DNA of 64,000 bases from Armatimonadota bacterium (GTDB taxonomy: Bacteria; Armatimonadota; Zipacnadia; Zipacnadales; UBA5352): positions 9,683 through 73,682 of the forward strand of contig JBNJEK010000001.1 of the NCBI GenBank assembly GCA_051745855.1, read 5' to 3'. The notes beneath the pieces are model-generated. The model made no database searches. It was not told where the DNA came from and saw only the letters and a program-made list of their open reading frames with translations. Both the position numbers and the translations under genes were made by a program. Below are positions 1,651 through 62,456 of the stretch, one piece after another; position 1 is the first letter of the stretch; each line of letters opens with the position of its first letter.

Positions 1651-1720
1651 GAGATGACCTCCGGAAGGCTCTTGTGCGTTCACTGGAAGTGACCTGACGT
1701 GCCCGCGTCCTCGTCGCGGG

Positions 1721-2287: not shown

Positions 2288-2466
2288 CCTGTCGGTACCT
2301 CCTGAGCGTGCATCCGGTTGCGCCATCCGCCTGGTGGTGCGCGTGGTCGCATGACAATTCTCGATGGACAGTCGAGGGTCCTTCGCGGGGAAAGAAGGAA
2401 GAGCAGGTGATGGCGGGCAAATCTTACGCGAACAACGACTGACGACCAATGCTCCAGGTGATGAAT

Positions 2467-5238: not shown

Positions 5239-5257
5239 CTGCGGAGGAGATGAGAAG

Positions 5258-6310: not shown

Positions 6311-6328
6311 GCGGGGGCCGGCCTCGCG

Positions 6329-6685: not shown

Positions 6686-6925
6686 GCAACTACCTCCCGA
6701 CCTGGTCTGTCCCCGTGAGGTATTTCGCGGCCCCGGGGAGGAGGGCCTCCGCGACCTGGTCAGTATGGACCATCGTGCAGACGCGACCTCCGGTGTGAGG
6801 CGTGGCGAGCGAACGGCGGCGAAGACCGGTGGCGGTGAGCGCGGAATGACAATCGTGGGAGGTAGACTGCACCGGGACTGCGAAACTCAATATGCGGGCA
6901 CAGACGCGACATGGAGGTGGCAGCG

Positions 6926-7861: not shown

Positions 7862-7866
7862 GCGGA

Positions 7867-8910: not shown

Positions 8911-9075
8911 GAACGCGGTGGCGGAGGGGAGAAGCGGCGTCGGGCCAGGGCAGGCCCGACCTCCGGACAGCAACGACGAACGGCCCCCTCCGCGCAGTGG
9001 CGGCGCAAACGACGCGCCGCGGGCGGGAGAGTGGAGTAGGACAGACGTATCAGCAACCGAGGGAGGTCACCAACC

Positions 9076-11649: not shown

Positions 11650-11801
11650 TCAGGGGCCTGCCTCAGTGAGGACTGCTCGCGCTCGCGAGTATTTCGCCGG
11701 AACGGCGCGAGGACCTGCCCTGCCGGCGAACGCAGGGATTGCGCGGCGGACCGTGGAATGTGTTTCGTATGAAAGCCGATGAGCCGCGAGGGGTGAGTTC
11801 T

Positions 11802-39782: not shown

Positions 39783-40760
39783 ATGAGAGAGGTTTTCTAC
39801 TCACACGCAATTCGCGAGGCGCTGGAGGAGGAGATGGCGCGCGACGAGCGCGTCATCCTCATTGGCGAGGATATTGCCGAATACGGCGGGGCATTCAAGA
39901 TCACCCGCGACATGGCGGAGCGTTTCGGCGCGCATCGGGTGCGCAATACGCCGATCAGTGAGAACGGCTTCGTCGGCGTGGCGGTCGGTGCGGCGATGAC
40001 CGGCCTGAGACCGGTCGCAGAGCTTATGTTCATGGATTTCCTCACGCTGGCGATGGACCAGCTTTGCAACCACGCGGCGAAATTTCGCTACCAGTACGGC
40101 GAGCAATGCACGATCCCGCTGGTGCTGCGCTGTCCGGCCGGGGCGGGGCGCTGCTACGGTCCGACACATTCACAGAGCCTCGAACGCTGGCTGATGAGCA
40201 CGCCGGGGTTGCTGGTGGCCGCGCCCGCGACCGCGGAGGACGCCAAGGGCATGCTCAAGTCCGCGATCCGCTGCGATGATCCGGTGGTCTTCATCGAGAG
40301 CAAGCTGCTCTATGGGAAGACGCAGGCTGTGCCGGAGGGTGATTATACGGTTCCGCTCGGCGAGGCGGTGGTTCGCCGCGAGGGCGAGCACGTCACGATC
40401 GTGGCATACTCGCGGATGGTGGATGAGGCGCTGCGGGCCGCCGAGGCGCTGGTCGAGCACGGTGTCGAGGCCGAGGTCATCGATCTGCGCACACTCGCGC
40501 CGCTGGACATCGACACGGTTGCCGCGTCGGTGGAGGCGACCGGCCGCGCAGTTGTGGTCGAGGAGGGAACGCTGACCGGTGGGGTTGCCGCGGAGGTGGC
40601 GCAGCGCATCACGGAGGAGTGTTTCGACGTGCTGGTAGCGCCGCCGATGCGCGTGGCGGCCCTCGACGTGCCGATCCCGTCCAGCCAGGTGCTGGAGGAG
40701 GCGGCGACACCGGACTGGCGTGACATTGCGCAGGCCGCCGCAGATGCCCTGAAGTACTGA
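39783..40760 (+). CDS. 2-oxoacid dehydrogenase E1 component beta subunit (transketolase-like), orphan
   Basis: Its full length matches PDH/BCKDH E1-beta (pyrimidine-binding plus C-terminal domain). No E1-alpha gene is adjacent. Confidence 0.85.
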   Translation: MREVFYSHAIREALEEEMARDERVILIGEDIAEYGGAFKITRDMAERFGAHRVRNTPISENGFVGVAVGAAMTGLRPVAELMFMDFLTLAMDQLCNHAAKFRYQYGEQCTIPLVLRCPAGAGRCYGPTHSQSLERWLMSTPGLLVAAPATAEDAKGMLKSAIRCDDPVVFIESKLLYGKTQAVPEGDYTVPLGEAVVRREGEHVTIVAYSRMVDEALRAAEALVEHGVEAEVIDLRTLAPLDIDTVAASVEATGRAVVVEEGTLTGGVAAEVAQRITEECFDVLVAPPMRVAALDVPIPSSQVLEEAATPDWRDIAQAAADALKY

Positions 40761-40776
40761 AGTGAGGAGAATAACC

Positions 40777-41655
40777 GTGGCCCCGGGCACTCTGGATGCG
40801 ACGATCATCGTTGTGAGTTACAACAAGCGCAAGTACACTGAGCTTTGCCTGACGAGCATGCTCCAGGGCGACCCGATGCCCGGACAGATCGTGGTGATTG
40901 ACAACGGCTCCACCGACGGGACGGTGCCCTTTCTCGAGGACGACTTTCCAGGGCAGGCGGAGGCGGAGGGCGTGCGCTTTGATCTGATCCGCAATGATTC
41001 GAACGTGGGAGCATGCACCGCGCGCAATCAGGGCCTGGCACTCGCCCTCGGTGAATACATCGGGTTCATGGACAATGACATCGCGGTGCGGAGCAGCGGA
41101 TGGCTGTCCACGCTGGCTTCGGTGCTGCGGGAAGATGACGACCACGGAATCGTCGGGCCGAAGCTGGTGTATCCTTTCGAGCCTTACAACATCCAGCACG
41201 CCGGCGCGGCGATCTCGAAGACAGGGCGAGTGAAGTATCTCGGCCGCGGTGAGCCGATTGACGCGCCTGAGCACAACAGGCGGCGTGAGGTGCAGTGTCT
41301 GATCAGTGCGTGCTGGCTGATGAAGTCCGAGATCCCCGAGTGCATCGGGGGGCTTGATGAAGTGTTCAACCCCGCGCAGTTCGAGGACTTTGACTTCTGC
41401 TACCGCGCGCGTGAGGCGGGGTGGACCGTGCTTTACGATCCGGTGGCCGAGATGTATCACTACGAGAGCGTCACCACGGATGCGTCGCCGGATGTCAACT
41501 ACAAGTACATCACGATCCGCAACGGCATGGAGTTCAAGCGGCGGTGGAAGCAGATGTTTGCCGAAGAGGACGGGCCGCCGGACGAAGAGTGCCAGTGGAA
41601 GCAGCTTGAGACGCGGCCGATCGAGCAGACGGGCATCCCACCGATCATCGACTGA
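40777..41655 (+). CDS. Glycosyltransferase family 2
   Basis: GT-A fold features are present (IIVVSYNK, DNGSTDGT, DxD FMDND). I prefer the GTG at 40777 because GAGGAG lies 7 nt upstream. Confidence 0.85.
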   Translation: MAPGTLDATIIVVSYNKRKYTELCLTSMLQGDPMPGQIVVIDNGSTDGTVPFLEDDFPGQAEAEGVRFDLIRNDSNVGACTARNQGLALALGEYIGFMDNDIAVRSSGWLSTLASVLREDDDHGIVGPKLVYPFEPYNIQHAGAAISKTGRVKYLGRGEPIDAPEHNRRREVQCLISACWLMKSEIPECIGGLDEVFNPAQFEDFDFCYRAREAGWTVLYDPVAEMYHYESVTTDASPDVNYKYITIRNGMEFKRRWKQMFAEEDGPPDEECQWKQLETRPIEQTGIPPIID

Positions 41656-41715: not shown

Positions 41716-41970
41716 ATGTCAGACGGGCAGTTGAAGCAGCGGATCAAGGACATGATCGTCGAGCGCCTCTTCCTCGACGCCGACCCGAATGAGATCGAAG
41801 ATGATGAGAACCTGATGGAAAACTACGAGATCGACTCGGTGAATCTCTTCGAGATCGTCGTCGGGCTTGAGGAGGAGTTCGAGATCTCGTTTGAGGACGA
41901 AGATTTCAGCGTGGATCTCTTCGCCACGGTCAACAACCTTGCCGAGTACGTCGAGCAGAAGCGGAGTTGA
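41716..41970 (+). CDS. Acyl carrier protein
   Basis: It is an 84-aa acidic protein with the phosphopantetheine-site motif IDSVNLFE. Confidence 0.8.
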   Translation: MSDGQLKQRIKDMIVERLFLDADPNEIEDDENLMENYEIDSVNLFEIVVGLEEEFEISFEDEDFSVDLFATVNNLAEYVEQKRS

Positions 41971-41977
41971 CCGGATT

Positions 41978-42790
41978 GTGAGCGGCAGCGAGGAGCGACT
42001 GGTGACCTTCGAGAGCGGAGGGGAGCCGCTCCACGGTGTACTTCACGTGCCCCGCGAGCCGAGCGGAAATGTGTTGGTTTTCTGCCACCCTTTCGCCGAG
42101 GAGAAGAAGTGCGCCCACCGGACGATGGTGGAGGCGGCCCGGGCCTGCGCCGTGGCGGGGTGGGCGGTGCTGGCCTTCGATCAACGCGGCTGCGGCGACA
42201 GCCCCGGCGTATTCGGCGCCCAGGACCTCGCCAACTGGCGCGAGGACATTCGCAAGGCGATGGAGTGCGCCACGCGGGAGACGTCGGCGCGGGCAGGGCT
42301 ACTCGGGCTGCGACTCGGGGGCGCGCTTGCCGCGGAGGTCGCCGAGCATCACGCGGATGTCGCGTGTCTCGTGCTGTGGGAGCCGATCATCGACGGGGAG
42401 CGTTACATCAAGCAGAACCTGCGCCGCTCGATGATCAAGGCGATGATGACGCGTCACGAGGGGGGCGAGAAGAGCGAGGGCGCGGCGGCCGAAGCGGGCG
42501 CGCTGGGGGAGGGAACCGTGGATTTCGACGGTTACCGCGTCCCGGAGGCGATGCGCGAGCAGATCGAGCAGATCGACCTGCTGGAGCCGCCACCTCACTT
42601 TGAAGGCCCGACGCTGGTGCTCAACATTGGGGCCAGCGACAGCGTCTCCGAGCAGATGGAGCAGCTCGCCGATGCCTATCCTCAAGGCAGCGCCATCGCG
42701 GTGCGGCAGGAGCCGATCTGGCAGCGCATCGGCGTGATTGACGCAAACCCGACTATCTCAGCGACGGTTGATTGGTTGCGACAGCAGTGA
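41978..42790 (+). CDS. Alpha/beta hydrolase fold protein with Arg at the nucleophile-elbow position
   Basis: It shows alpha/beta hydrolase topology (FDQRGCGDS, then GLRLGG where the consensus is GxSxG). I inferred the GTG start just after the ACP stop. Confidence 0.7.
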   Translation: MSGSEERLVTFESGGEPLHGVLHVPREPSGNVLVFCHPFAEEKKCAHRTMVEAARACAVAGWAVLAFDQRGCGDSPGVFGAQDLANWREDIRKAMECATRETSARAGLLGLRLGGALAAEVAEHHADVACLVLWEPIIDGERYIKQNLRRSMIKAMMTRHEGGEKSEGAAAEAGALGEGTVDFDGYRVPEAMREQIEQIDLLEPPPHFEGPTLVLNIGASDSVSEQMEQLADAYPQGSAIAVRQEPIWQRIGVIDANPTISATVDWLRQQ

Positions 42791-43665
42791 GCGTAAGGCA
42801 GCGTGAAGCGACGCACAGGCATCTTTTCTTCGACAGCGACGGGCAGCGGGTACTCGGCGTACTGCAAACTCCCGACAGGCCGATGCGCCCGGGCGCGCTG
42901 GTCTTTCTGCACGGATGGGCCGGCTACAGGATCGGCCCGCATCAGATGTTCACCAAGGCGGCGCGGCAGGCTGCCGAGCTGGGCTTCGCATCGCTGCGCT
43001 TCGACTTCCGCGGCCGCGGCGACAGTCAGGGCGACGCGGCGGCCACGACACTTTCTACGATGATCGAGGACGCGCAGCGAGCGGTGGAAGTGGTCTGCGA
43101 CGAGACCGGTGCTGAGCGGGTCGCCCTGATCGGCGACTGCTCGGGCAGCGAGGTGGCGATCGGCGCGGCCACGCTTGATGAGCGCATCGACTCACTGGTG
43201 CTGTGGTCGGCGCCGATCGTGGCAGGCGACCGCTCCGAGGCTGACGCCGCGAAGCGCAGGAGTATGTACTCGACGTATCTCCGCAAGATCTTCCGGCGGG
43301 AGACGTGGTCGAAGCTGCTGGGCGGCCGGCTGCAGCCGGGGATGATCCTCAAGGCACTCACGCGCGGAGGGAAGGGCGCCGGTGAGGAGGGCGCAGAGAG
43401 CGACCGGGAGATCGACTGGTATCATCGCTTCGTGGATTTTGCCGGCGAGGTCATGCTTATCTACGGGGGAAACGACCCGACGACCGACAGCGCACTTGAG
43501 CACTACCGCGAACTGTCGCGGAAGGCCGGGCGCGAGCTCAACCATCACATCGTCGATGGGGCCAACCACGCCTTTTACTCGCTGGGCTGGGAGCAGGAGG
43601 TGCTCGAGGTGAGCCTCGAGTGGCTGTGCGAGCGCTACGCCGCGGGCGAGGGCGCCGATGGCTGA
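42787..43665 (+). CDS. Alpha/beta hydrolase with a Cys nucleophile elbow (GDCSG)
   Basis: It is paralogous to the upstream hydrolase (FDFRGRGDS...IGDCSGS). Its GTG start overlaps the upstream stop (GTGA). Confidence 0.7.
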   Translation: MSVRQREATHRHLFFDSDGQRVLGVLQTPDRPMRPGALVFLHGWAGYRIGPHQMFTKAARQAAELGFASLRFDFRGRGDSQGDAAATTLSTMIEDAQRAVEVVCDETGAERVALIGDCSGSEVAIGAATLDERIDSLVLWSAPIVAGDRSEADAAKRRSMYSTYLRKIFRRETWSKLLGGRLQPGMILKALTRGGKGAGEEGAESDREIDWYHRFVDFAGEVMLIYGGNDPTTDSALEHYRELSRKAGRELNHHIVDGANHAFYSLGWEQEVLEVSLEWLCERYAAGEGADG

Positions 43666-44815
43666 GCGAACACCCAGGCGGGTGATGCTGGTCAACCACG
43701 TGGGCGAGGTGAGCGGCGCGGAGGAGAGCATGCTCACGCTTGTGCGGCACCTTGACCGCGCGCGCTTCGAGCCGGTTGCGGCGGTGCCGGCGGGGCGGCT
43801 GGCCAGGGAGCTTGAAAAACTCGAGGTGCCGGTGAGGCTGATCCCGGAGTTGCGGCTGTCGCGGCGGAGCCTGTGGACCACGCTCGTTGGCGGGATAAAG
43901 CTGCGATCGTGGGCGGGCAGGGTGCGGAGTGTCGTTGAGGAAGCCGGAGCGCATCTCGTGGCGGCCAACAGCCTGACGACGGCGCTGGGCTGTGCGATGC
44001 GTGTAAGTGACGACTGGCCGATGGTCTGGCATGCGCGCGACCTGCAGGCGCCCCGGCGGGCGGTGGGTTACGTGGTGCCACGGGCGCGGCGCATCGCGGC
44101 GATCTCGGCCTGTGTGGCCGATGCGTTGATTGAAAGCCATCGCGACGCCCGATCGAAGACGGTCATGATTCACAACGGTGTTGACACACTGGCCTTCCAA
44201 CCGACGCGGACGGAGCTTGAGGTGCGCGAGGAACTTGGGCTCCCGGTGGCCGCTCCCGTGATCGGGACGATCGGTCAGCTTGTTCCGTGGAAGCGACAGG
44301 ACGTCTTTCTTGAGACTGCGGCGCATATCCTCGCGCACAACAAGGACGCGCACTTCCTGGTGGTGGGCGCGGATTTGTTCGGCGAACACCCCGACTACGT
44401 CGCTGAGCTTCACGCGCTGAGCGAGAGTCTCAATGTGAGCGATCGCGTGATCTTCACGGGCTTTCGTGAGGACATCGCGTCGGTTATGAGCGCGCTCGAT
44501 GTTCTGATACACACCGCTGAGAACGAGCCGCTGGGACGGGTAGTGCTGGAATCGATGAGCCTCGGCGTGCCGTGCGTTGCGGTGGACAGTTGCGGGCCGG
44601 CTGAGATCATCAGAGACGGCGACAGCGGCATCCTCGTATCCCGGCCTGATGCGCGTCAGATGGCCGCGCGCGTCGTCGAGTTGCTCTCGCGACAGGGCGG
44701 CGTGGAGCGCATGGGGCAGGCCGCGCGGCGCCGGATCAACGAATTCTTCAGCGCCGAGCGCATGGCGGAACTGACCGCGGACCTTTACGAGGAGGCGCTA
44801 ACCGCGACGCGGTGA
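43658..44815 (+). CDS. Glycosyltransferase family 4
   Basis: The GT-B C-terminal motif E..G.VVLESMSLGVPCVA is present. Its ATG overlaps the upstream gene by 8 nt. Confidence 0.85.
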   Translation: MAERTPRRVMLVNHVGEVSGAEESMLTLVRHLDRARFEPVAAVPAGRLARELEKLEVPVRLIPELRLSRRSLWTTLVGGIKLRSWAGRVRSVVEEAGAHLVAANSLTTALGCAMRVSDDWPMVWHARDLQAPRRAVGYVVPRARRIAAISACVADALIESHRDARSKTVMIHNGVDTLAFQPTRTELEVREELGLPVAAPVIGTIGQLVPWKRQDVFLETAAHILAHNKDAHFLVVGADLFGEHPDYVAELHALSESLNVSDRVIFTGFREDIASVMSALDVLIHTAENEPLGRVVLESMSLGVPCVAVDSCGPAEIIRDGDSGILVSRPDARQMAARVVELLSRQGGVERMGQAARRRINEFFSAERMAELTADLYEEALTATR

Positions 44816-45975
44816 TGAAGACGGATGCGTCGGATGACGATCGGCTTCACGTGGGAATCGACTGCCTGGTGGTCGCGGATCGGCCCTCCGGTGTCGAGCG
44901 GGCAGTCGTGGGGCTGGCGGAAGGCCTCGCTGAGATCGCGCCGGCGGACCAGCGGTTCAGTCTGATGGTGGCGGCCGGCCGCGAGGATGCGCTGCCGAGC
45001 GGAGAGGGCATTGCGCCCCTGGCGGCGCCGAGGTGGGCGGAGCGGAGGGCGGGTCGCGTCTTCTACGAGCAGGCGCTTGCGGCCACGCGACTGCGGGCGG
45101 AGCAGGTCGATGTGCTTCACGGGGCCGCCTACGTGCTGCCTCACAACTGGGAGGGGCCGTCGGTGGTGACAGTCCACGACGCCATCACCGTCTGCCACGA
45201 GCAGTGGTGTCAGTGGCACAACGTCATACACTACGGACTGGTCATGACGCGCAGCGCGCGCAATGCCAGCGCGGTGATTGTGCCAAGCGAGTTCACGAAG
45301 CGCGAGCTTGTCGAGCATGTCGGCGTTCAGAGGCGGCAGATTCGGGTCGTGCCCCTGGGCGTTGGTGATGAATTCGCGCCCGCCGGGGAGGATGCAGTCG
45401 AACGGGCGCGTCGGCGGCACGGATTGCCCGAGCGCTATGTGCTCTGCGTGGGGAATGTCGAGCCGCGCAAAAACCTGACGGCGGTCGTCAACGCCTTCAA
45501 CCGGGTCGCGGAGGAGACCCCGCACGGGCTGGTGATTGCCGGAAAGCGCGGGTGGAAGTGCGGTGAGATCTGCGCGGAGATGAAGCGGTCGCCTTTCTCC
45601 GAGAGGATCCGGTGGCTCGGCTGGGTGCCGCATGAAGACTTGCCGGCGCTTTACTCCGGTGCGGAGCTCTTCGTGCAGTGGTCGCTGCATGAGGGCTTCG
45701 GCCTGACGCCGCTGGAGGCGATGGCATGCGGGACACCGGCGGTCATATCCGACGGCGGTGCGCTGCCGGAGATCGCCGGTGATGCGGCGCGCGTGGTAGC
45801 GCTGAGCGAGGGGGCGGTGGGACTTTCCGGGGCGCTCGTCGAATTGGCAGGAGACGAGGACGCGCGGGCGGAGATGGCCGAGCGTGGCATCCGGCATGCG
45901 GTGAGATACACCTGGGCCGCGCACGCGGAGGCGGTCGCGCAGACCTACCGGGAGGTTGCCGGTGCGCAGGAGTGA
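44815..45975 (+). CDS. Glycosyltransferase family 4
   Basis: The GT4 motif EGFGLTPLEAMACGTPAV is present. Its start overlaps the upstream stop (TGATG). Confidence 0.85.
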   Translation: MKTDASDDDRLHVGIDCLVVADRPSGVERAVVGLAEGLAEIAPADQRFSLMVAAGREDALPSGEGIAPLAAPRWAERRAGRVFYEQALAATRLRAEQVDVLHGAAYVLPHNWEGPSVVTVHDAITVCHEQWCQWHNVIHYGLVMTRSARNASAVIVPSEFTKRELVEHVGVQRRQIRVVPLGVGDEFAPAGEDAVERARRRHGLPERYVLCVGNVEPRKNLTAVVNAFNRVAEETPHGLVIAGKRGWKCGEICAEMKRSPFSERIRWLGWVPHEDLPALYSGAELFVQWSLHEGFGLTPLEAMACGTPAVISDGGALPEIAGDAARVVALSEGAVGLSGALVELAGDEDARAEMAERGIRHAVRYTWAAHAEAVAQTYREVAGAQE

Positions 45976-47212
45976 ACGTCGTGGGCGGCTGGTCTACGTG
46001 CTCGGCAGTTTTCCGTCGCTGTCGGAGACGTTCATCCTGCGAGAGATGCTCGAGCTTGAGCGGAGGGGCTTCCAGCTTTCAATTCTGTCACTGGAGCCGG
46101 GGGAGGATGTGGTCCACGAGAGTGCGACGGAACTGGCGGACCGCACGGTCTATCGGCCGCCACCGCTGTCGTTGCGCTCGCTGATGGCGGGCGTGGTGGC
46201 GATGGTGCTGCGTCCCTTCGGCTTCTTCGGGGCGCTGCTCTACGCGCTCGGCTGCATCGCTCGTTCTCCCGGCGCCGCCAGCGAGGTGGTCCGGAGCTTC
46301 TGCGCGGCCGCGTTCTTCGCATGTGCCCTGCGCGGGACGCGCCCGAAGCATGTACACGCGCATTTCGCGTCGATGCCGGCGACAGCAGGCCTCCTGCTGG
46401 CGCAGATGCTGGAGACGACGTTCTCAGTTTCTGCGCACGCGAGGGACCTTTTCACCGACGAGTCCGTTCTGATGGACAGGAAGATGCGCGAGGCCGAGTT
46501 CGTGACCGTCTGCACGCAGTTCGGCCTCGAACAGCTCCGCCGTCAGCATCCAATGTCGAGCAGTGAGCGTCTCAATCTGATCTACCACGGGATCGACGTG
46601 GTGGAGCTTATCCCGTCGCCGGACCCGGTCAGCCTCGGAGATCCGCCGCTGATACTGTCGATCGGTCGGCTTGTGGAGAAGAAAGGCTTCCCGATCCTGC
46701 TGCGGGCGGCGGCGATGCTCAGACGCGAGGGCGTGGACTTCCGGCTGAGGATCGTCGGCACCGGACCAGAGGAGGCGGATCTGAGGCGGCTGGCATCGGG
46801 GCTGGCGCTTGAGGAATGCGTGGAGTTTGACGGGGCAATCGCGCACGAGGAACTGATCCCGCTTTTCTGCACGGCAGATCTCTTCGTGCTCGCGTCGATC
46901 GTCGCCAGCGATGGCGACCGCGACGGCCTGCCGAACGTGCTGCTGGAGGCGCTGGCGCTGGAGGTGCCGGTCGTCAGCACGCGCGTCTCCGCCATCCCCG
47001 AGTTGATCGAGCATGAGCGCACAGGCCTGCTTGCGAACCCCGGTGACCCGAAGGGACTCGCCGAGCATATGGAGCGCCTGCTCTTCGACGAGCAGCTTCG
47101 AGCGAAGGTCATCGAGCAGGGGCGCCGCGAGGTGGTTGAGCGCTTCGACGTGACGAGGAACGTCGGGACGCTCGCCGATCTCTTCAGCGAGGTCATGAAG
47201 CGCAGAAGATAA
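45962..47212 (+). CDS. Glycosyltransferase family 4 (WcaL-like)
   Basis: GGGAGGT lies 5 nt before the GTG. The GT4 C-terminal motif (DGLPNVLLEALA) is present. Confidence 0.8.
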   Translation: MRRSERRGRLVYVLGSFPSLSETFILREMLELERRGFQLSILSLEPGEDVVHESATELADRTVYRPPPLSLRSLMAGVVAMVLRPFGFFGALLYALGCIARSPGAASEVVRSFCAAAFFACALRGTRPKHVHAHFASMPATAGLLLAQMLETTFSVSAHARDLFTDESVLMDRKMREAEFVTVCTQFGLEQLRRQHPMSSSERLNLIYHGIDVVELIPSPDPVSLGDPPLILSIGRLVEKKGFPILLRAAAMLRREGVDFRLRIVGTGPEEADLRRLASGLALEECVEFDGAIAHEELIPLFCTADLFVLASIVASDGDRDGLPNVLLEALALEVPVVSTRVSAIPELIEHERTGLLANPGDPKGLAEHMERLLFDEQLRAKVIEQGRREVVERFDVTRNVGTLADLFSEVMKRRR

Positions 47213-47291: not shown

Positions 47292-49109
47292 GTGAGTACT
47301 GTGAGCGACGCTCCTGACGATCGCGACGAACTGGACGAAACGAAGCCTTCGGAGAGAAGCGCGGGGGCTCAGATGACGATCGCCGCGATCATCATCAGCG
47401 CCTTCGGACTGCTCGGCAAGGTGCTCGGCTACGGCAAGGAGATCCTGATCGCCAACTGGTGGGGGCGGGGGGCGGCGGTCGATGCGTTTGTGGTCGTCTA
47501 CAAGTTCATCATCTTCCAGGTGTACACCAAGATTGAGAAGCTTCTGCGTCCCACCTACCTGCCGATCTTCGTCGATCACAGGTCTGAGGGCGAACAGCGA
47601 CAGGCGTGGCATTTCTTCCGCGTCATAGCGACGATCACATTCGTGGTGATGACGGCGATCTCAGTGGCCACCGTCATCTGGGCGCCGTGGATTGTGCGGA
47701 CGTTCTGGCCGGCGCTTGAACTGCCCGTGATCGGCGCGGAACTGCTGCGGATCTCCGCCGGCGCGCTGCTGCTGCTGGTCATGTCGGTGATGGTCGAGTT
47801 GACCCTGCACTCACACAAGGAGTTCACCATCCCGGCAATGGCCGACGCCGGCCGCCAGTTCGTGCTCTTCGGATGCATCGCGGGTCTGGTTGGCTTCGGC
47901 GTCTACGTCGCCGGGGAGCCCAGCGGCATGAAGGCTGCGGCGATCGGCGTACTTCTCGGTGGAGCGACAAGGCTTGTGATGCAGCTTCCGGCCCTCATTC
48001 GTCGCGCCCCTGACCTCCGTCCGGCCGCGCCCGGGAGCGACGAAGCGGGCCCTGTCCTCATTATCATATTCTTCTGGTGGTTTATCCTCCTCGCCGACGC
48101 CGTCCGCCACGTGGGGCGCAGGATTGGCGTCATCTCCGAGGCGACCGACGATGACCCGCGGTTGCTCGACCGCATCGCCGACTACGGCAAGGGCTCAACC
48201 TCCGACGTCGTGAAGATGTTCAGTCTCATCCCGCCGGTGATAGTGGGCCTGCTTTTCTCGATGCTGCGCGGCTACTTCGACAGCCGTTTCGGCACCGACG
48301 CAGGTGAGGGTGTCGTTGCGGCCCTCAACTACGGCCGAATGCTTGCCGACCTTCCGACATTGATCCTCCCCTTCGCTGTGAGTCTCGCCGTCTATCCCTT
48401 CGTGTCAGAGTGGGCCTCGCGCCAGGACAGGCAGGCGCTGGCGGACTCGCTGGTCTCGATGACCCGTGCGATGGTCTTCATCTTCCTCCCGGTGGCCCTC
48501 GGGATGATCGTGTTGGCGAATCCGATCATCGCGACCGCCTTCGAGCGGGGAGCGTTCACCGCACAGGACACCTCGGCGGTGACCCGCGCGCTCGTACCCT
48601 ACTCAGCTGGCCTGCCGTTCTTCGCGGTCGAAGCCTCGATCAACAACTGGTACTTCGCACTCGCCGACACCGCCACCCCCAACTACATCGGCGCGATCAT
48701 GGCGGTGCTGCACATCCTGATTGCCGGCTTCGGCGTCTACGCTCTCAGCGGCAGCATCGGCATCATCGCCGCGGCGCTGTCGGTGTCCAAGGCATTGAAG
48801 GTGATCGTGCTCTATGCCATGCTGCGCAGTCGCATCGGGGAGATCGATCGCGCGGCCGTGATGAGCTTCGTCAGCAGGATGCTTATCGCCACCGTCATCA
48901 TGATCGCGGTCGTCATCGCGATCCGGCAGGGCCTTGCGCCGATCCTGATGGTCGGCGGCACAGTCCACCGGCTCCTGTTTCTCGCCATCGTCGGCGTGTC
49001 CGGCGCCGGCGTCTACCTCGTGGCCGCCTGGGCGCTGCGCATCGAAGAGGTCGGGATGGTCGTCGAGTATGCCCGCGAGAAGATCTCCAGCAAGCTCGGG
49101 GGCAAGTAG
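47292..49109 (+). CDS. MOP-superfamily flippase (MurJ/Wzx-like polysaccharide biosynthesis protein)
   Basis: It has multiple TM helices with MurJ-like N-terminal helices. It carries an unusually long internal hydrophilic insert (about 290-370 aa). The start is uncertain: 47292 GTG or 47373 ATG. Confidence 0.75.
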   Translation: MSTVSDAPDDRDELDETKPSERSAGAQMTIAAIIISAFGLLGKVLGYGKEILIANWWGRGAAVDAFVVVYKFIIFQVYTKIEKLLRPTYLPIFVDHRSEGEQRQAWHFFRVIATITFVVMTAISVATVIWAPWIVRTFWPALELPVIGAELLRISAGALLLLVMSVMVELTLHSHKEFTIPAMADAGRQFVLFGCIAGLVGFGVYVAGEPSGMKAAAIGVLLGGATRLVMQLPALIRRAPDLRPAAPGSDEAGPVLIIIFFWWFILLADAVRHVGRRIGVISEATDDDPRLLDRIADYGKGSTSDVVKMFSLIPPVIVGLLFSMLRGYFDSRFGTDAGEGVVAALNYGRMLADLPTLILPFAVSLAVYPFVSEWASRQDRQALADSLVSMTRAMVFIFLPVALGMIVLANPIIATAFERGAFTAQDTSAVTRALVPYSAGLPFFAVEASINNWYFALADTATPNYIGAIMAVLHILIAGFGVYALSGSIGIIAAALSVSKALKVIVLYAMLRSRIGEIDRAAVMSFVSRMLIATVIMIAVVIAIRQGLAPILMVGGTVHRLLFLAIVGVSGAGVYLVAAWALRIEEVGMVVEYAREKISSKLGGK

Positions 49110-49113
49110 CCTG

Positions 49114-50283
49114 ATGGTCGACGCCGGCCGCATCACAGTCTGTCACGTGCTCGAGGCCACGGAGGGCGGCACCAGGCAGTATCTCAACGACGTGTTGCTC
49201 GGGCTTCCTGCCGACCGTTTCGAGCAGACTGCGGTGGTCTCCACCCTGCGCGCACCTGAATTCGCTGAGGACATCGAGCGTTTCCGCGAGGCCGGAGTGA
49301 GCGTGGAAGTCGTGGAGATGGTGCGCGAGATCGATCGCGAGCAGGACATGCGCGCGTACCGCGAGCTTCGCGCCTTCTTCAGGGCAAACGAGTTCGACGT
49401 CATTCATACGCACAGTTCGAAGGCCGGCTTCCTCGGTCGCGTCGCCGCGTGGCGGGCGCGTAACCCCGCCGTGAGAGTACATTCGCCACACGCTTTCGCT
49501 TTCGAGATGAACGCAGCGCCGTGGCGCAGGCTGCTTTTCCGCACCCTCGAGCGTCTCACCGGGCGCCTGACTCACCTGCTCGTGTGCACATGCGAGGGCG
49601 AGCGGGAAATCGCGGTTCGCAACCGGATCGTGCCGCCGGGTCGGGCCGCCGTAGTGCGCACCGGCGTCGATCTCAAGCGCTTTCACCCTCAGCCTCACGC
49701 ACATCGAATCCGCGAGGAAATCGGCCTGCCCGCGCGCCATCGGATCGTCGGCACGGTCGGCGCGATCGTCGAGCAGAAGGGACATCGAGCGCTGGTTGAG
49801 GCCGCGCCGGCCGTCATCGAGGAGATGCCGCACACCACATTCGTCATCGTCGGGGGCGGCGAGCTGCGTGAGGAGCTTGAAGCGCGCGTCAATGAGCTTG
49901 GTCTCGGCCGTCGGTTTCGCTTTCTCGGCTACCGAGATGATGTCCCGCGCGTGCTTGCCACCTTCGACCTCTTCGTGATGCCCTCGCTGTGGGAGGGCAT
50001 GCCCTACGCGCTGGTGGAGGCGATGGCCGTCGGCGTGCCGGTCGTTGGGAGCGACATTCCGGGGATCGCCGACATCGTGCGTCCTCGGCAGACCGGCCGA
50101 CTGGCGCCCCCCGGTGACCCTGCGGCGCTTGCAGACACGATCCTCACGGCGCTGCGGGAGGACGGGAAGTCCGCCACAATGGCGGAGACGGCTCGCGGGA
50201 TGGTCATGAGTGAGCACTCTCGTAAGCGCATGCTGGCCTCGCTGACGGCGTGTTACGTCCGGCTGATGGAGGACAGAGCGTGA
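49114..50283 (+). CDS. Glycosyltransferase family 4
   Basis: The GT4 motif EGMPYALVEAMAVGVPVV is present. It starts 5 bp after the flippase stop. Confidence 0.85.
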   Translation: MVDAGRITVCHVLEATEGGTRQYLNDVLLGLPADRFEQTAVVSTLRAPEFAEDIERFREAGVSVEVVEMVREIDREQDMRAYRELRAFFRANEFDVIHTHSSKAGFLGRVAAWRARNPAVRVHSPHAFAFEMNAAPWRRLLFRTLERLTGRLTHLLVCTCEGEREIAVRNRIVPPGRAAVVRTGVDLKRFHPQPHAHRIREEIGLPARHRIVGTVGAIVEQKGHRALVEAAPAVIEEMPHTTFVIVGGGELREELEARVNELGLGRRFRFLGYRDDVPRVLATFDLFVMPSLWEGMPYALVEAMAVGVPVVGSDIPGIADIVRPRQTGRLAPPGDPAALADTILTALREDGKSATMAETARGMVMSEHSRKRMLASLTACYVRLMEDRA

Positions 50284-50993
50284 GCAGGGGCAGGCAGGAC
50301 GTGGCCGACGGGCGTCTGCTTCGAGTGACCGACCTCGGTCGGATGGGGCATGCGGAGGCTGAGCGGCTGCAGGAGCGGCTTGTCGAGACGCGCCGCGCGG
50401 GCCGGGTGCCGGATACGCTGCTGCTGGTCGAGCATGACCCGGTGGTGACGATCGGCAGCGCGGTGGAGGAGGGGGCGGCCGAGGTGAGCGCGCAGTTGCT
50501 GGAATCGGCGGGCGCCGAAATGCGTCAGGTAAGCAGAGGCGGGCGAGCGACCTTTCACGGTCCGGGGCAGATCGTCGGCTATCCGATTCTCGATCTCCGG
50601 CAGCACCGCCGCGATCTGCACTGGTACCTTCGGTCGCTCGAGCAGGTGATCATCGACGCACTGGGCGACTTCGGGCTGGACGCCGGGCGCGAGGACGGCC
50701 TGACGGGCGTCTGGGCGGGGGGCAGGAAGATCGCCAGCATCGGGATCGCTGTACGCGGATGGGTGACGTGGCATGGATTTGCGCTCAATCTGGACGTTGA
50801 CGCCCACTGGTGGCGGATGATAGACCCCTGCGGGCTGCGCCCCGATCAGATGGGATCGCTGAGCGATCTCATGACGTCATGTCCATCACGCGAGAGCTTC
50901 TGCGATGCGCTTGCCAGGCAGTTGGGCCACGTCTTCGATCTGCGGGTGCAGAAGATAGTCACGACGGAACTTTTCGAGGAGTCGGCCTTCTAA
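50280..50993 (+). CDS. lipB: Lipoyl(octanoyl) transferase LipB
   Basis: The LipB core is present (FHGPGQIVGYPIL, K-containing GVWAGGRKIASIG). Its GTG start overlaps the upstream stop, and GGAGGA lies 6 nt upstream. Confidence 0.85.
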   Translation: MSRGRQDVADGRLLRVTDLGRMGHAEAERLQERLVETRRAGRVPDTLLLVEHDPVVTIGSAVEEGAAEVSAQLLESAGAEMRQVSRGGRATFHGPGQIVGYPILDLRQHRRDLHWYLRSLEQVIIDALGDFGLDAGREDGLTGVWAGGRKIASIGIAVRGWVTWHGFALNLDVDAHWWRMIDPCGLRPDQMGSLSDLMTSCPSRESFCDALARQLGHVFDLRVQKIVTTELFEESAF

Positions 50994-51081: not shown

Positions 51082-51765
51082 GTGGCAGCCGAGCAGGTTG
51101 ACATGGCCGAGGAGCTTCGTCCGGTCGCATGGCCGATGTACGGGGTGCACGTCGGTCTCCTGATCGTCGTGTTCGGAACCGTGTACACGGCACAGGTGCA
51201 GGGCGCGGTGACGAGCCTGGAGTACGCCGGCTATGCCGTGATCGGGCTTGCGCTGCTGCTGACCGGGTCGATCAGGGCCGTGGATATCGGTTCGGTCGGC
51301 TCGCGGGGGCTGCTCGCGCTGGGCGCGGCGGTCGCGTTGTACCTTGCGTATGATCCGCAGGTGATGGCATTGCCAGGAGCTGGAATGCTCGCTGAGACTC
51401 CCGTGAGCGCCCTGGGGCCGAGCATGGCTCACTTCGGCGTGGTCATCGCGGGTCTCTTCCTCGGGCTGCAGGCGGCGGTTGATCGGCGCGCATTGCCGCG
51501 CCATGTGCCGTTCCGCGCGGCGGTGGTTGTGGCCGTGGCGCTGCTGGTGGGGCTGAGCATCATCACCTCCACGGCTCTGGGCAGAGTATATGACCTTTCG
51601 ATGACGACGGGCCCGTCGGTGCTTGCGTTTCGCGCAGTGGCATACGGACTGCTGATGATCGTCTGCGTGACGATCCCCGGCGTTCGCCGCGTCAGCCGCG
51701 CCCCACACATCTATCTCGGCCTGGCGCTGATCGGCGCCGTGGTCAGGAATCTCGTGGTGAACTGA
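51082..51765 (+). CDS. Polytopic membrane protein, unknown function
   Basis: It has about 6 TM helices. The GTG start has GGAGGA 4 nt upstream. Confidence 0.6.
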   Translation: MAAEQVDMAEELRPVAWPMYGVHVGLLIVVFGTVYTAQVQGAVTSLEYAGYAVIGLALLLTGSIRAVDIGSVGSRGLLALGAAVALYLAYDPQVMALPGAGMLAETPVSALGPSMAHFGVVIAGLFLGLQAAVDRRALPRHVPFRAAVVVAVALLVGLSIITSTALGRVYDLSMTTGPSVLAFRAVAYGLLMIVCVTIPGVRRVSRAPHIYLGLALIGAVVRNLVVN

Positions 51766-51767
51766 CT

Positions 51768-53099
51768 GTGGCAGCCGAGGCGCGGACAGAAGGTTCAAAG
51801 ACATTCATCGATCGCGTTGAGGATCTGCTCTGGCCACTGACGATCGTGCTTGTGCTGATCGCCCCGAGCCAGTTTTCGTACGCTCTTGACCCGAAGGACG
51901 GCCCGTTCATACTTTACGCCGACCTCTTCGCGGCGGCTCTCTTCGGGCTGTGGGCACTGGTGGTGCTGATCGGGCGGCGCTGGAAGAAGATAGCATATCC
52001 GCCAGCGGCGATCTGGGCGCTGCTTGCTGTGGCCGCGATCTCCGCGCTCGGGGCGACGAGCCTTTCTTCTGCGGTGGTGGAGATCGCCCAGCTCGGCCTC
52101 TACTTCGTGGCGGTCTACGCGCTTTTCGCCAATATCGTGCGCGGACAACACCGGCTGGTGCTGATCGCGAAGATCGTCGCCATCGGGACCACGGTAGCCA
52201 TCGGCTTTGCGCTCTATCAGTACTTCACCGTGGATGACCCGATGGACGTGAGGGGTACATTCGGCAACCGGAACGTATACTCCGCGTACCTCGTGATGGT
52301 GCTTCCGCTGCTCTACGGGATGGCCATCTGGACGCGCGACACCACGCACCGCGCCTGGTTTTTCGTGGTGGTGGCGCTTGGCGCGATGACGATGCTGGCC
52401 GGGCTGCAGTTCTGGTGCCTGATGCTGGTGCTGCTGGTTCTCAGCGCGCTGAAGAGTCTTCGATGGCTCGGATACTTCGTACTCGGTGCGGCGATCATCA
52501 TCACACTCTTTGTCGGCGTGCTGCACACCAACCGCGACGCGGTGTTTGCAGAGGTGACTGATCCGATCGAACGGGGGGAGACGTTCAAGCTCGGTCCGGG
52601 GCATGACCCGGAGCATGTCGTGAAGATGCGCTGGCTCGAGTGGCACCCGGCACTGGTAATGACGGCGGAGAATTTCCCCACAGGCGTGGGTGTCGGTAAC
52701 TATCAGAGGCACATAGGTGAATCAAGTTACTGGGGGATGGTCCCTCGCGCAACGAAGATCGAACCGGACACGAACAACTTGTATCTCGTCATTGCGGCCT
52801 CGATGGGCTTCGTGGGGCTGGTGGCGCTGCTGGCGTGGCTGGGACACCACTGGCGCCTCGCCGAGTCCAACTGGACGGAGGCGAAGGACGCCTGGTCGAT
52901 GGGTGTGTGCTGGGGTCTGCTCGGCAGCGTTTACGGGATAGTGCTGGTAAACATATTCTCCAGCCTCTTCGTCAGAGGAACAAGCTTAGTGTGGGCGTTG
53001 ATCTTCGCGATGATAGCTTCGGTGAGCATTCACGGGTTCGGGGGAAACGATGTTTCGAGCGTCGAGAACGCGTCAAAGCACAGGAGTCGGGAGGACTGA
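51768..53099 (+). CDS. O-antigen ligase / Wzy-type polymerase family membrane protein
   Basis: It has about 10-12 TM helices with a periplasmic loop typical of Wzy_C / O-antigen ligase. Confidence 0.7.
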   Translation: MAAEARTEGSKTFIDRVEDLLWPLTIVLVLIAPSQFSYALDPKDGPFILYADLFAAALFGLWALVVLIGRRWKKIAYPPAAIWALLAVAAISALGATSLSSAVVEIAQLGLYFVAVYALFANIVRGQHRLVLIAKIVAIGTTVAIGFALYQYFTVDDPMDVRGTFGNRNVYSAYLVMVLPLLYGMAIWTRDTTHRAWFFVVVALGAMTMLAGLQFWCLMLVLLVLSALKSLRWLGYFVLGAAIIITLFVGVLHTNRDAVFAEVTDPIERGETFKLGPGHDPEHVVKMRWLEWHPALVMTAENFPTGVGVGNYQRHIGESSYWGMVPRATKIEPDTNNLYLVIAASMGFVGLVALLAWLGHHWRLAESNWTEAKDAWSMGVCWGLLGSVYGIVLVNIFSSLFVRGTSLVWALIFAMIASVSIHGFGGNDVSSVENASKHRSRED

Positions 53100-53692: not shown

Positions 53693-55720
53693 ATGACCAG
53701 GACGCAGCGATCACCCGGCATCGGAGGCACGCTCGCCGCCATCGCGGCCGCGCTCGTGGTATTGAGCGCGGCTGCAGCGGCACGTACGCCTGCCTTCGCT
53801 CAGGATGCGCCGAAGATGCTCGAAGATACCGCCGAGGCGCCCTACGCCCTCGCGGCCAACCTCCACGTGACAGACCCCGACGCCCTTCACCTGCAGATCT
53901 TCCTCGAACGCCAGGATGCTGACAACGGCTACGTCATCACCTGCACCGCGCGTGAGACATTCGTCGAACGTGTCGTAGACGGTGAGAACGTCCGGATCGG
54001 TCACGGCCGACCGATCGGCGAATTGGTCGCCGACAGCGATCTCGAGTTGACGGTCCGCCGCGACAACTGGCGGATCGTGTTCGTGCTTGACCGGCAGGTG
54101 CTCGCGCAGGCGTGGGACAGCACCCTTGCCGGCGGCGGAGTCGGGTATTCGGTCACAGGCGGCGAGGTCGGCGATGCGCTGGTTCAGCCGCTCGGCAGGG
54201 TGTACATGACCGATGACTTCATGCGCGTCGGTGAAGAGGCCAGTCAGTGGGAACCTGTCAGCGGCACGTGGGAGACGCAGGAACTGCGGGTAGATGAGCA
54301 GAGCGAGCGGATGGAGGCGGACAAGTCCGCGAACGCCTTCAGCTACTGGGGCAAGGGCGGTGAAGAAGAGCCGGCACTGGCCTCGACTGGCTACTGGTTC
54401 TGGAATAACTACCTGGTCGCCGCGGCCGTGCGCGCATCGGAGACAGATCCGCTGGGCCTCGTCGCGTACTACCAGGACCCGGAGAATTACCTGCTCGCCC
54501 GCTGGACTTCTGCCGTGTCGGAGGCGGTCGACGCGAACCTGCTTCAGCTTATCGGTGTTCGCGACGGCGAGCGATCGGTGCTCGCCGAGACCAGTGGCGG
54601 CCACCTCCCGGGACAGTGGTATCAGCTCGAGCTTCGTATCTGCGACGGAGTGGTGCAGTGTCTGGTGGATGACGAGCCGAGGCTGGTCGCGCACTTCGAC
54701 GCCTTCGGACAGGGCCAGCCCGCCCTTTACTGCGAGGGGGAGCGTGGCACATTCTTCGACAGTGTGGCGATCGAGGACTGGGAGGTTCTGAGCGAAGACT
54801 TCGAGCGAACGGCGCCGGGGAAGTGGGTCGTGAGTTCCGGTGACTGGAATCTCGACGGCGGCGCGATGGTCGCGGAGGGTGACGGTCCGCGCCTGGTGGT
54901 CACCGGCAGGCCCGACTGGCAGGGCTACTGGGTCGCCGCGACCGTGGAGATGCGGGGCGCGGCGGGGATCGCCGTCTGTGCCAATGACTCATCGATGTAC
55001 GGGCTGAGATTCGGGACACAGGGCTCCGGTGTGGAGTACGAGGGCCAGGCTCAGTTAGTGCGCGTGGCGGATGGGACCACCGAGGTGCTTTCCTCCGCGC
55101 CCGCGCAGATCGCCCCGGGCAGCAGGCATCGGCTGAAGGTCGTGGCGGATGATGGGCTGCTGACCGGATATCTGGATGGAAAACGGGTGCTTGATGCGTA
55201 CGATGCCGACGCGACCACAGGGCGCATCGGACTGGTCGCCGGGGGAGATGGGGCGGTTCATTTTGACGATGTCTACCTCACGATGATTCCGCCGAAGCGC
55301 ATCGCGCGGGTCACCAAGGAGTTCGCCGAGGATGACGCTCACCCCGAGATGGCGGAGTGGGCCTCCACGCGCGCTCCATGGCTCAAGCCTGACGAGGATG
55401 ACGTGGTCTGGTGGACGAAAGGTGATTACTTCGGCGACAAGACGATTACCCTTGAGATTCCGGGTGTCGAGGCCGCCGATGGCTCCGTCAGACTGACGCT
55501 CGAGGCCGCGCCCGGTGAGGAAGGCTCCGGGGCGACGCTCGTCATTGCGACGGTCGAGGGTGCCGCGAGCGTCACGGCCACGCTGACGGTGGACGGTGAA
55601 GAGATCGGTGAGGAGATAGTCGAGGTCGAGAGCGATCCCTGCCCGGTGCGTTTTGAGCGGAAGGGCACGTGGATCGTCGCTTCAATCGATGGTACTGTTG
55701 TTTTCAATGTAAAGCGCTGA
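53693..55720 (+). CDS. Secreted multi-domain LamG/DUF1080-like (concanavalin-type) protein
   Basis: It has a signal peptide and at least two DUF1080-like jelly-roll units (GKWVVSSGDWNLDGG...HFDDVYLT). Confidence 0.8.
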   Translation: MTRTQRSPGIGGTLAAIAAALVVLSAAAAARTPAFAQDAPKMLEDTAEAPYALAANLHVTDPDALHLQIFLERQDADNGYVITCTARETFVERVVDGENVRIGHGRPIGELVADSDLELTVRRDNWRIVFVLDRQVLAQAWDSTLAGGGVGYSVTGGEVGDALVQPLGRVYMTDDFMRVGEEASQWEPVSGTWETQELRVDEQSERMEADKSANAFSYWGKGGEEEPALASTGYWFWNNYLVAAAVRASETDPLGLVAYYQDPENYLLARWTSAVSEAVDANLLQLIGVRDGERSVLAETSGGHLPGQWYQLELRICDGVVQCLVDDEPRLVAHFDAFGQGQPALYCEGERGTFFDSVAIEDWEVLSEDFERTAPGKWVVSSGDWNLDGGAMVAEGDGPRLVVTGRPDWQGYWVAATVEMRGAAGIAVCANDSSMYGLRFGTQGSGVEYEGQAQLVRVADGTTEVLSSAPAQIAPGSRHRLKVVADDGLLTGYLDGKRVLDAYDADATTGRIGLVAGGDGAVHFDDVYLTMIPPKRIARVTKEFAEDDAHPEMAEWASTRAPWLKPDEDDVVWWTKGDYFGDKTITLEIPGVEAADGSVRLTLEAAPGEEGSGATLVIATVEGAASVTATLTVDGEEIGEEIVEVESDPCPVRFERKGTWIVASIDGTVVFNVKR

Positions 55721-55770
55721 TCGGCGCTGTCGCGCAACGTGAGAATGTGGCGTGCTGTGAGGAATCCGCG

Positions 55771-60027: not shown

Positions 60028-60097
60028 TGAGCGCCGAAGATAACCCGGGCGGCGCCAGGCGCATGCGCTCGGCGCCGCCTTTTCGTGGGAGGGGAGC

Positions 60098-62278: not shown

Positions 62279-62456
62279 TCTCGACTCAGATCGCGAGCAG
62301 GACCCGCACTGCGGAGAGAGCGCCGCACCGGGTGGGCGTCATTGGGGAGGCACTCCTCTCGCAGCAGGCGGGGGGCGGTTGTCGTCTTGCCCGCCAAAGC
62401 CGCGTTCGTTTATACTGACTGCCCACAGGCTTAGACGAACCGGGGGAATACTCAGG

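Follow-up and report, generated by a model that had tools for sequence, protein, structure and literature searches.

An acyl carrier protein and a Cys/Arg pair of alpha/beta-hydrolase-fold paralogues form a predicted acyl-handling module in an Armatimonadota exopolysaccharide locus

RESULTS

An acyl carrier protein gene precedes two paralogous hydrolase-fold genes

We analyzed a 64-kb stretch of genomic DNA from an Armatimonadota bacterium (contig JBNJEK010000001.1, positions 9,683 to 73,682; below, the window), with a G+C content of ∼65%, in which three co-directional plus-strand genes encode an acyl carrier protein (ACP) and two proteins of the alpha/beta-hydrolase fold, designated here hydrolases A and B. 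The first gene (41716-41970) encodes the ACP, a PF00550 protein of 84 amino acids (aa). It is followed by the genes for hydrolase A (41978-42790; 270 aa), whose best curated family is TIGR03101, and hydrolase B (42787-43665; 292 aa), whose best curated family is TIGR03100. The ACP stop codon, TGA, lies at 41968-41970, leaving a gap of 7 nucleotides (nt) to the GTG start codon of hydrolase A at 41978, and a GGAG is present 11 nt upstream of this GTG. The GTG start of hydrolase B at 42787 overlaps the stop codon of A in the sequence GTGA, and the next gene, for a GT4 glycosyltransferase, begins at 43658 and so overlaps the end of the hydrolase B gene by 8 nt. The ACP gene and the two hydrolase genes are translationally coupled.

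By comparison with Pfam, the ACP is a member of the PP-binding family (PF00550, 41.9 bits against a gathering threshold of 20.8). The protein is very acidic, and its predicted phosphopantetheine-attachment residue is Ser41 within IDSVNLFE (codon 41836-41838); this Ser of the DSV motif was invariant in 55 of 55 related ACPs. The coordinates and the PF00550 score bear out an earlier note on this DNA, made from the letters alone, which had described an 84-aa ACP with IDSVNLFE and the 7-nt and GTGA junctions. The same note had presented an ACP plus two hydrolases as a known trio of exosortase-A (XrtA)/PEP-CTERM loci. That claim was overstated, because the ACP matched no model specific to exosortase systems: of its 17 NCBIfam matches, none was to an exosortase-related model, and all specific NCBIfam ACP models fell below their cut-offs (the highest, AmcB, at 60.4 vs 80). 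Our literature search found no paper joining XrtA with an acyl carrier protein, and of the proposed trio, an association has been described for the hydrolase pair alone. We also rejected a lipoyl-carrier function of the ACP, since the surrounding gene cassette has no lipoyl domain and no E2 domain or core.

Hydrolase B has a predicted Cys-Asp-His triad that hydrolase A lacks

Both hydrolases scored above the gathering thresholds of Pfam Hydrolase_4 and Abhydrolase_1 and thus belong to the alpha/beta-hydrolase fold. Their matches to solved esterases in phmmer searches of the Protein Data Bank (PDB) sequences reached E values down to 1.7e-26, and Foldseek comparisons of the two predicted structures returned serine esterases (PET46, TTL, and feruloyl esterases) at E values of 1e-17 to 1e-14 with TM scores of 0.6 to 0.75. 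In the phmmer alignments, LIGDCSGSEVA of hydrolase B, whose GDCSG motif spans residues 116-120, was paired with VIGLSMGGRVA of entry 9pjb, with Cys118 on the catalytic Ser. Likewise, GLLGLRLGGALA of hydrolase A was paired with GLLGLSLGGAIA of the TTL lipase (9h0z/7q4h), with Arg112, which lies in GLRLGG (residues 110-115) and is encoded by codon 42311-42313, on the catalytic Ser. From these alignments to solved serine esterases, Cys118 and Arg112 therefore hold the catalytic-serine position. TTL (7q4h/9h0z), PET46 (8b4u), the MHETase MHT043-5 (9pjb), and the feruloyl esterases share the fold subclass of A and B, but they have a Ser nucleophile and are single active enzymes, whereas B has Cys and A has Arg without a triad.

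AlphaFold2 models of the two proteins were built from 54-sequence alignments. In the model of hydrolase B (pLDDT 86.3), Cys118 follows beta5 (strand 111-117) and precedes a helix at residues 119-128, and the canonical acid and base positions are occupied by Asp230, after beta7 (strand 221-227), and His261, after beta8 (strand 252-256). The triad is encoded by codons 43138-43140 (Cys118), 43474-43476 (Asp230), and 43567-43569 (His261), and a further loop, HGWxGxRxGPH, spans residues 42-52. Hydrolase B has a full-length, 100% identical counterpart in the database (P0001), from an Armatimonadota metagenome-assembled genome. The Cys, Asp, and His of the triad were invariant in 54 close homologues, and 120 of the 120 closest homologues read G-x-C-S-G at the elbow. 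To broader effect, a HMMER search with B against 1.84 billion cluster representatives listed 150 proteins, down to ∼30% identity; among the 149 that we analyzed, the aligned positions held Cys in 148/148, Asp in 135/136, and His in 133/134. These data indicate, from sequence and model, that hydrolase B keeps a complete Cys118-Asp230-His261 triad and is a predicted catalytically complete enzyme. Hydrolase B also passed the Pfam dienelactone hydrolase family (PF01738, 31.9 vs 21 bits) over profile positions 3-127 of 217, below its Abhydrolase_1 score of 50.2 bits. We rejected an N-acyl homoserine lactone (AHL)-lactonase role, as the UilS model scored ∼40 bits against a cut-off of 400, and a BioH/pimeloyl-ACP esterase role, for which there was a generic JGI label and a TIGR01738 score of 17 bits.

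In the hydrolase A model (pLDDT 87.9), Arg112 lies between a strand at residues 105-111 and a helix at 113-123. No conserved acid follows beta7, no His is conserved, and the position of the base is taken by EP-I-W248, with an invariant Pro-x-Trp248. Near the former active site, the protein retains conserved polar residues of its own, namely Glu41, Glu42, Arg48, and Arg112, and ∼115 of its 120 closest homologues read G-[LV]-R-x-G, with Gln found in 3. Hydrolase A is thus, as judged from alignment and predicted structure, an alpha/beta-hydrolase-fold paralogue without a catalytic triad, the Ser, Asp, and His all having been lost, and the elbow motifs of both proteins are conserved far beyond chance. 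By BLASTP, A and B were 36% identical over 157 aa (E value of 1e-19), in keeping with the homology that the earlier note had read from the sequence. Its placement of Arg and Cys at the two nucleophile elbows was confirmed by the phmmer alignments and by the models, in which both residues sit between beta5 and the next helix, and its view of A as probably inactive and B as a Cys-type enzyme agrees with the loss of Ser, Asp, and His in A and the complete triad in B.

The hydrolases are sub-threshold relatives of two curated families

The earlier note had proposed a check against the exosortase-associated hydrolase models, and here its expectation held in part. The top curated family of hydrolase A was indeed TIGR03101 (hydr2_PEP) and that of B was TIGR03100 (hydr1_PEP), but both scores lay below the cut-offs (135.6 bits vs 202.75 and 120.9 bits vs 168.45, respectively); A and B are therefore related to these equivalog families without belonging to them. 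The cut-offs were also missed by ten diverse relatives, fusion proteins among them, at 84-152 bits for TIGR03100, and by the fused relatives for TIGR03101, at 134-171 bits. Both models are NCBIfam/TIGRFAM "hypothetical equivalog" entries whose function is unassigned in the model, and their members are likewise encoded by adjacent genes in a polysaccharide locus. A TIGR03100 protein is described as encoded beside a hydrolase-2 partner. Such adjacency is present here, with the hydrolase-2-like gene (A) first and the hydrolase-1-like gene (B) second; A lies directly upstream of B in this locus and in 50+ related ones, and other loci encode the two as a fusion.

We further scored point mutants of A and B on the curated hidden Markov models (HMMs), as a stand-in for canonical proteobacterial members. 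On TIGR03100, the wild-type score of B (120.9) fell to 114.9 with C118S, 115.1 with C118A, 115.2 with H261A, and 116.4 with D230A, and R48A and H52A cost 4.5 and 4.7 bits; Trp44 was not preferred. On TIGR03101, the wild-type score of A (135.6) fell to 132.3 with R112S, 132.2 with R112A, and 131.6 with R112C, and the changes for E41A, E42A, and R48A were -4.3, -2.9, and -3.1 bits, compared with -0.3 and -0.5 for the controls K44A and D182A. Conversely, R112C raised the score of A on TIGR03100 from 53.2 to 59.0. TIGR03100 thus shares with B a preference for Cys118, Asp230, His261, Arg48, and His52, and TIGR03101 shares with A a preference for Arg112, Glu41, Glu42, and Arg48. By these profile scores, the curated families carry Cys (B) and Arg (A) at the elbow columns, and the two residues are therefore family hallmarks, not a quirk of this locus. 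The earlier note's description of them as unusual does not hold in this respect, since Cys and Arg are conserved family-wide and preferred by the curated models.

With every large open reading frame (ORF) of the 64 kb scanned against family models, we found in the window no exosortase, no EpsI, no PrsK/R or other PEP-CTERM regulator, no AMP-forming ligase (TIGR03098), and no pyridoxal phosphate-dependent decarboxylase (TIGR03099), and no ORF of the window ended in a PEP-CTERM-like tail, consistent with the earlier note, which had seen no exosortase there. An exosortase hidden in an unscanned gap was rejected, as the largest such ORF (28609-30492) encodes a WD40 protein and PEP-CTERM tails were absent. 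This plus-strand gene, which a codon-position gene filter had missed, encodes a 627-aa WD40-repeat protein with a PF00400 score of 354.6 bits over 8 stretches. Rfam gave no matches in the window. The systems of TIGR03100 and TIGR03101 differ from the present locus in these respects: the window lacks an exosortase, PEP-CTERM, TIGR03098, and TIGR03099, and it has an ACP and the E1beta and LipB genes described below, in an armatimonadote.

A profile search of a 5.8-billion-protein set returned only "alpha/beta fold hydrolase" proteins of Planctomycetota/Armatimonadota type, and no canonical proteobacterial XrtA members. A tblastn search against plasmids returned generic hydrolases and no canonical XrtA loci, and a scan of genome contigs yielded 80 loci, nearly all from Armatimonadota or the Planctomycetota-Verrucomicrobiota-Chlamydiota (PVC) group, with no canonical proteobacterial XrtA loci. 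In the literature, the TIGR03100/TIGR03101 accessions were found only via Bcam1334, a TIGR03100-like protein, and we found nothing else on their function. What the locus encodes is a sub-threshold variant of a family pair that is known but uncharacterized, here in a phylum and gene context new for the pair.

Hydrolases A and B occur as adjacent genes and as fusions

Among the 149 listed B representatives, 48 were A-B fusions of ∼560-640 aa, A-like in the N-terminal half and B-like in the C-terminal half, and Arg occupied the elbow in 47 of the 47 aligned A-like domains. At the level of genomic loci, A and B were fused in 10 of 85, always in the order A then B; the fusions come from Abditibacteriaceae, Fimbriimonadaceae, and Lentisphaeria (L060, L062-L064, L066, L068, L071, L080, L081, and L084; proteins P0241-P0380). 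The existence of natural fusions argues that A and B likely act together. One fused locus that has no ACP within 2.5 kb, L063, carries an AMP-binding, fatty-acid-CoA-ligase-like gene upstream of the fusion and SDR and GNAT genes downstream. We note that a retron Ec78 PtuA/PtuB-like pair (AAA ATPase and HNH nuclease) lies between the AMP-ligase gene and the fusion in L063, at 6806-8988. No signal peptide was read from the sequences of A or B.

B-like proteins also occur alone. In L004/L072 and L005, from Brocadiia and other Planctomycetota, the gene at 10001-10846 encodes a stand-alone B-like Cys-His-Asp hydrolase and directly follows genes for PBP2, RodA, and a large radical-SAM protein, a different setting for the same Cys family. 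Stand-alone B-like representatives were found in Bacteroidota as well.

The trio is part of a conserved exopolysaccharide cassette

The three genes lie within an operon-like run on the plus strand that extends from an E1beta gene through a Wzy_C gene, with overlapping or very short junctions. The run begins with a pyruvate dehydrogenase E1-beta-like subunit of a thiamine pyrophosphate (TPP) enzyme (39783-40760; NF006667, 372 bits vs a cut-off of 321), followed after 1 nt by a GT2 glycosyltransferase gene directly upstream of the ACP (40762-41655). Downstream of hydrolase B are three GT4 glycosyltransferase genes with overlapping junctions (43658-44815, 44812-45975, and 45956-47212), a MurJ/Wzx-like flippase gene (47292-49109; PF03023, 187.5 bits), and a fourth GT4 gene (49069-50283) whose best curated match was to the XrtA-system stp2 model TIGR03088 (158.6 bits vs 409). 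The start of the next gene, for a LipB octanoyl-ACP:protein transferase (50250-50993; TIGR00214, 152.9 bits vs a cut-off of 83.55) with intact RKIASIG and PCG motifs, overlaps the 3′ end of the fourth GT4 gene, so that both E1beta and LipB are embedded in the polysaccharide operon. Genes for a polytopic membrane protein (51082-51765) and a Wzy_C polymerase/ligase-like protein (51768-53099) complete the run. Farther downstream of Wzy on the same strand, the region 55669-61777 encodes a 1452-aa protein, recognizable only in its N-terminal TPR region, and then a PMT_2/GT-C membrane glycosyltransferase. A Wza-like exporter gene lies at 62379-63863 (+) and scored 178.7 bits on TIGR03027 (XrtA/PEP-CTERM EPS export), just under the cut-off of 180. 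The exporter is the strongest XrtA-type signal in the window besides the two hydrolases.

We compared this arrangement with 85 related loci, most of them from Armatimonadota (Zipacnadia, WS1, Armatimonadia, Abditibacteriaceae, and Fimbriimonadaceae) and the rest from Planctomycetota, Lentisphaerae, and Kiritimatiellia. The ACP-A-B trio was found in 50 of the 85; wherever A was a separate gene and the sequence extended 1.3 kb or more upstream, an ACP was present. Counting each neighbor over the trio loci whose flanks reached far enough, we found the GT2 gene in 40/43, an upstream E1beta gene in 29/35, the first, second, and third GT4 genes in 45/46, 41/43, and 38/40, the MurJ-like flippase in 32/35, the fourth GT4 in 30/33, LipB in 20/30, and Wzy in 21/28. 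The conserved order is E1beta, GT2, ACP, A, B, three GT4, MurJ-like flippase, GT4, LipB, and Wzy. An E1alpha gene, missing from this window, adjoins E1beta in 14 relatives, one of them a Lentisphaerae locus. The relatives behind these E1beta, E1alpha, and LipB observations are L001, L026, L035, L048-L051, L055, L056, L060, L061, L069, L070, and L082. The retention of E1beta and LipB in the cassette could point to a 2-oxo acid as the origin of the acyl group, or to LipB as the actual user of the ACP.

Some relatives depart from this layout. L003 and similar loci have the trio and the glycan genes without E1 or LipB. In L001, the region 1-8738 upstream of the ACP encodes a FabF-like tandem ketosynthase, E1alpha, a HEAT-repeat protein, and a PFL-family glycyl-radical enzyme, which suggests that elaboration of the ACP-bound acyl group varies between lineages.

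DISCUSSION

Taken together, these data are best read as describing a module that handles acyl groups in the cytoplasm as part of a Wzx/Wzy-type exopolysaccharide pathway, in which the ACP and hydrolases A and B probably attach or remove an acyl group. Within this prediction, we tentatively propose that acyl transfer depends on the ACP and proceeds via a thioester at Cys118 of an A/B heterodimer, a mechanism that seems to us quite possible while falling short of an even chance. A and B would form a heterodimer in which B alone is catalytic. An acyl thioester carried by the ACP would move to Cys118, giving an acyl-S-enzyme, and the acyl group would then pass, before flipping, to a hydroxyl or amine located either on the lipid-linked sugar repeat unit or on its reducing-end anchor. 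The Arg/Glu pocket of A may bind the phosphopantetheine of the ACP or the acceptor. The acyl group might be supplied by the upstream E1(alpha)beta 2-oxoacid enzyme or by fatty-acid synthesis; in other lineages, an AMP-ligase (L063) or a FabF-like ketosynthase (L001) is found at that place in the locus.

The proposal has precedents elsewhere. The alpha/beta-hydrolase-fold dimer PhaC has a Cys-Asp-His site and forms acyl-thioester intermediates (PMC7214940), and it resembles B in fold, triad, and the use of acyl thioesters; the two protomers of its dimer also behave differently (PMC7214940). It differs, however, in using coenzyme A (CoA) thioesters, in making a polyester, and in being a homodimer of active subunits, not a pair of active and inactive paralogues. 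Membership of A or B in the PhaC family was rejected, as no PhaC model was among their NCBIfam/Pfam matches (E ≤ 0.01). TviD, a cytoplasmic hydrolase-fold capsule O-acetyltransferase, requires Cys18 and His253 (PMC8760489). We regard it as a functional analogue, since it is cytoplasmic, needs Cys and His for polysaccharide O-acylation, and works beside a GT4 enzyme, but its fold is SGNH-like, and the paper reports no ACP and no inactive paralogue (PMC8760489). In addition, a Cys-dependent thioesterase domain works on carrier-protein thioesters (PMC13288461).

Several observations weigh against acyl transfer by the trio. We found no experimental work on the hydrolase 1/hydrolase 2 families in the literature. 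Cys-His-Asp alpha/beta hydrolases may merely hydrolyze, as dienelactone hydrolase does, and the Cys is therefore no proof of transfer. None of the enzymes that might load the ACP, whether an AMP-ligase, an acyltransferase, or a phosphopantetheinyl transferase, was found in the window, and the LipB of the operon also uses acyl-ACP and could be the real consumer of the ACP. An ACP within 2.5 kb was missing from 9 of the 10 loci with fused A-B. Moreover, stand-alone B-like Cys proteins in Planctomycetota, encoded after PBP2, RodA, and a radical-SAM gene, occur without A or ACP; such contexts show that the fold is not tied to ACPs in general.

The foremost alternative is that B is a thioesterase, with Cys118 hydrolyzing acyl-S-ACP either to release a free acid for a later step or to edit mis-primed ACP, A serving a structural role only and the glycan not being acylated. 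Stand-alone alpha/beta-fold type II thioesterases are common beside carrier proteins. The closest solved structures (TTL lipase, PET46, and feruloyl esterases) are all hydrolases, and the N-terminal half of B passes PF01738, a family that hydrolyzes with Cys-His-Asp on the same fold. Dienelactone hydrolase differs from B in being a monomeric lactone hydrolase with no ACP link, and the PF01738 match is partial and ranks under Abhydrolase_1. A thioesterase would have no need for a conserved inactive partner with its own Arg/Glu pocket, nor for fusion to one; the strict replacement of Ser by Cys (148/148) would be expected more of enzymes that retain an acyl group and hand it on, and the tight embedding among glycosyltransferase genes suggests a glycan acceptor. 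We consider this alternative unlikely.

A second possibility, which we rate as quite unlikely, is that A/B is a transacylase that loads the ACP, charging holo-ACP via Cys118 with an acyl group whose source would be acyl-CoA, the E1 (TPP) enzyme, or the product of an AMP-ligase, after which LipB or a membrane acyltransferase would use the acyl-ACP. It would fill a gap, as the window holds no other candidate loader, and it would fit the conserved E1beta gene directly upstream (with E1alpha in 14 relatives) and the presence of the acyl-ACP-consuming LipB in the same operon. A and B also weakly matched the alpha/beta-hydrolase part of NF011457, the model for the acetyltransferase subunit of acetoin dehydrogenase, at 15.0 and 21.6 bits, but these matches are far under the cut-off of 307 bits and amount to generic fold matches, and the cassette is without a lipoyl domain or E2 core. 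L003-type loci, moreover, keep ACP-A-B without E1 or LipB, and the trio therefore functions without them.

The top curated matches, to exosortase-A-associated hydrolases 2 and 1, together with the sub-threshold matches of neighboring genes to XrtA models (TIGR03027, 178.7/180; TIGR03088, 158.6/409), might instead be taken to mean that sorted PEP-CTERM proteins are attached to a molecule made or modified by the module, with the exosortase encoded elsewhere in the genome. We regard this as improbable. The 64-kb window has no exosortase, EpsI, PrsK/R, or PEP-CTERM tail, and what the relatives share with it is the glycan cassette, their flanks not having been searched specifically for an exosortase. 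TIGR03100-like proteins also occur in exopolysaccharide clusters described without an exosortase, such as that of Bcam1334 (PMC3584217). This protein of the Burkholderia cenocepacia Bep cluster, called a "predicted hydrolase" in a paper that makes no mention of exosortase (PMC3584217), is also encoded among GT4s, a flippase, and export genes; compared by the paper's description and not by sequence, its cluster has no hydrolase-2 partner or ACP listed (PMC3584217).

Finally, B is most improbably a polysaccharide esterase or "quality-control" hydrolase that removes ester substituents or trims the polymer beside an incidental ACP, a role suggested for Bcam1334 in the sole published comment found on a TIGR03100-like protein (PMC3584217) and echoed by acetyl-xylan and feruloyl esterases among the fold relatives, since an ACP lies at few-nucleotide spacing beside every separate A-B pair with readable upstream sequence, and since A and B have no signal peptides and would therefore not act on exported polymer.

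Ever since the models were made, the hydrolase 1/hydrolase 2 pair of exopolysaccharide and exosortase loci has had a name but no assigned function. To this we add that one partner is a predicted Cys-His-Asp enzyme and the other a conserved, apparently non-catalytic paralogue with Arg, that the two are sometimes fused, and that the pair travels with a dedicated ACP inside a Wzx/Wzy cassette in Armatimonadota and neighboring phyla. A blank annotation is thereby turned into a concrete and testable hypothesis, ACP-dependent acyl transfer via a cysteine thioester. If it is true, it would show how environmental biofilm or floc polysaccharides of a widespread class become acylated or anchored, and the alpha/beta-hydrolase superfamily would gain a clear enzyme/pseudo-enzyme pair. 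If B is a plain thioesterase, the result would be a routine refinement of annotation. A bolder reading, and one that we think has little likelihood of being right in full, is that the cassette E1(alpha)beta-GT2-ACP-A-B-GT4s-flippase-LipB constitutes an undescribed route for decorating or anchoring exopolysaccharide, in which an acyl group made by the pyruvate dehydrogenase-like E1 enzyme, or extended by a FabF-like ketosynthase in some lineages, would pass by way of the dedicated ACP and a hard-wired, asymmetric heterodimer of Cys-His-Asp enzyme and Arg-for-Ser pseudo-enzyme to the lipid-linked glycan. On this reading, the hydrolase 1/hydrolase 2 pair of exosortase-A systems would be explained by the same chemistry.

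We also note two genes far upstream of the cassette whose products have weak matches to defense-system proteins. The product of the minus-strand gene at 10930-11649 weakly matched a PtuA-like or restriction-associated AAA ATPase, and that of the adjoining, divergent plus-strand gene at 11739-12950 weakly matched a PLD-family DrmC/NucT-like nuclease.

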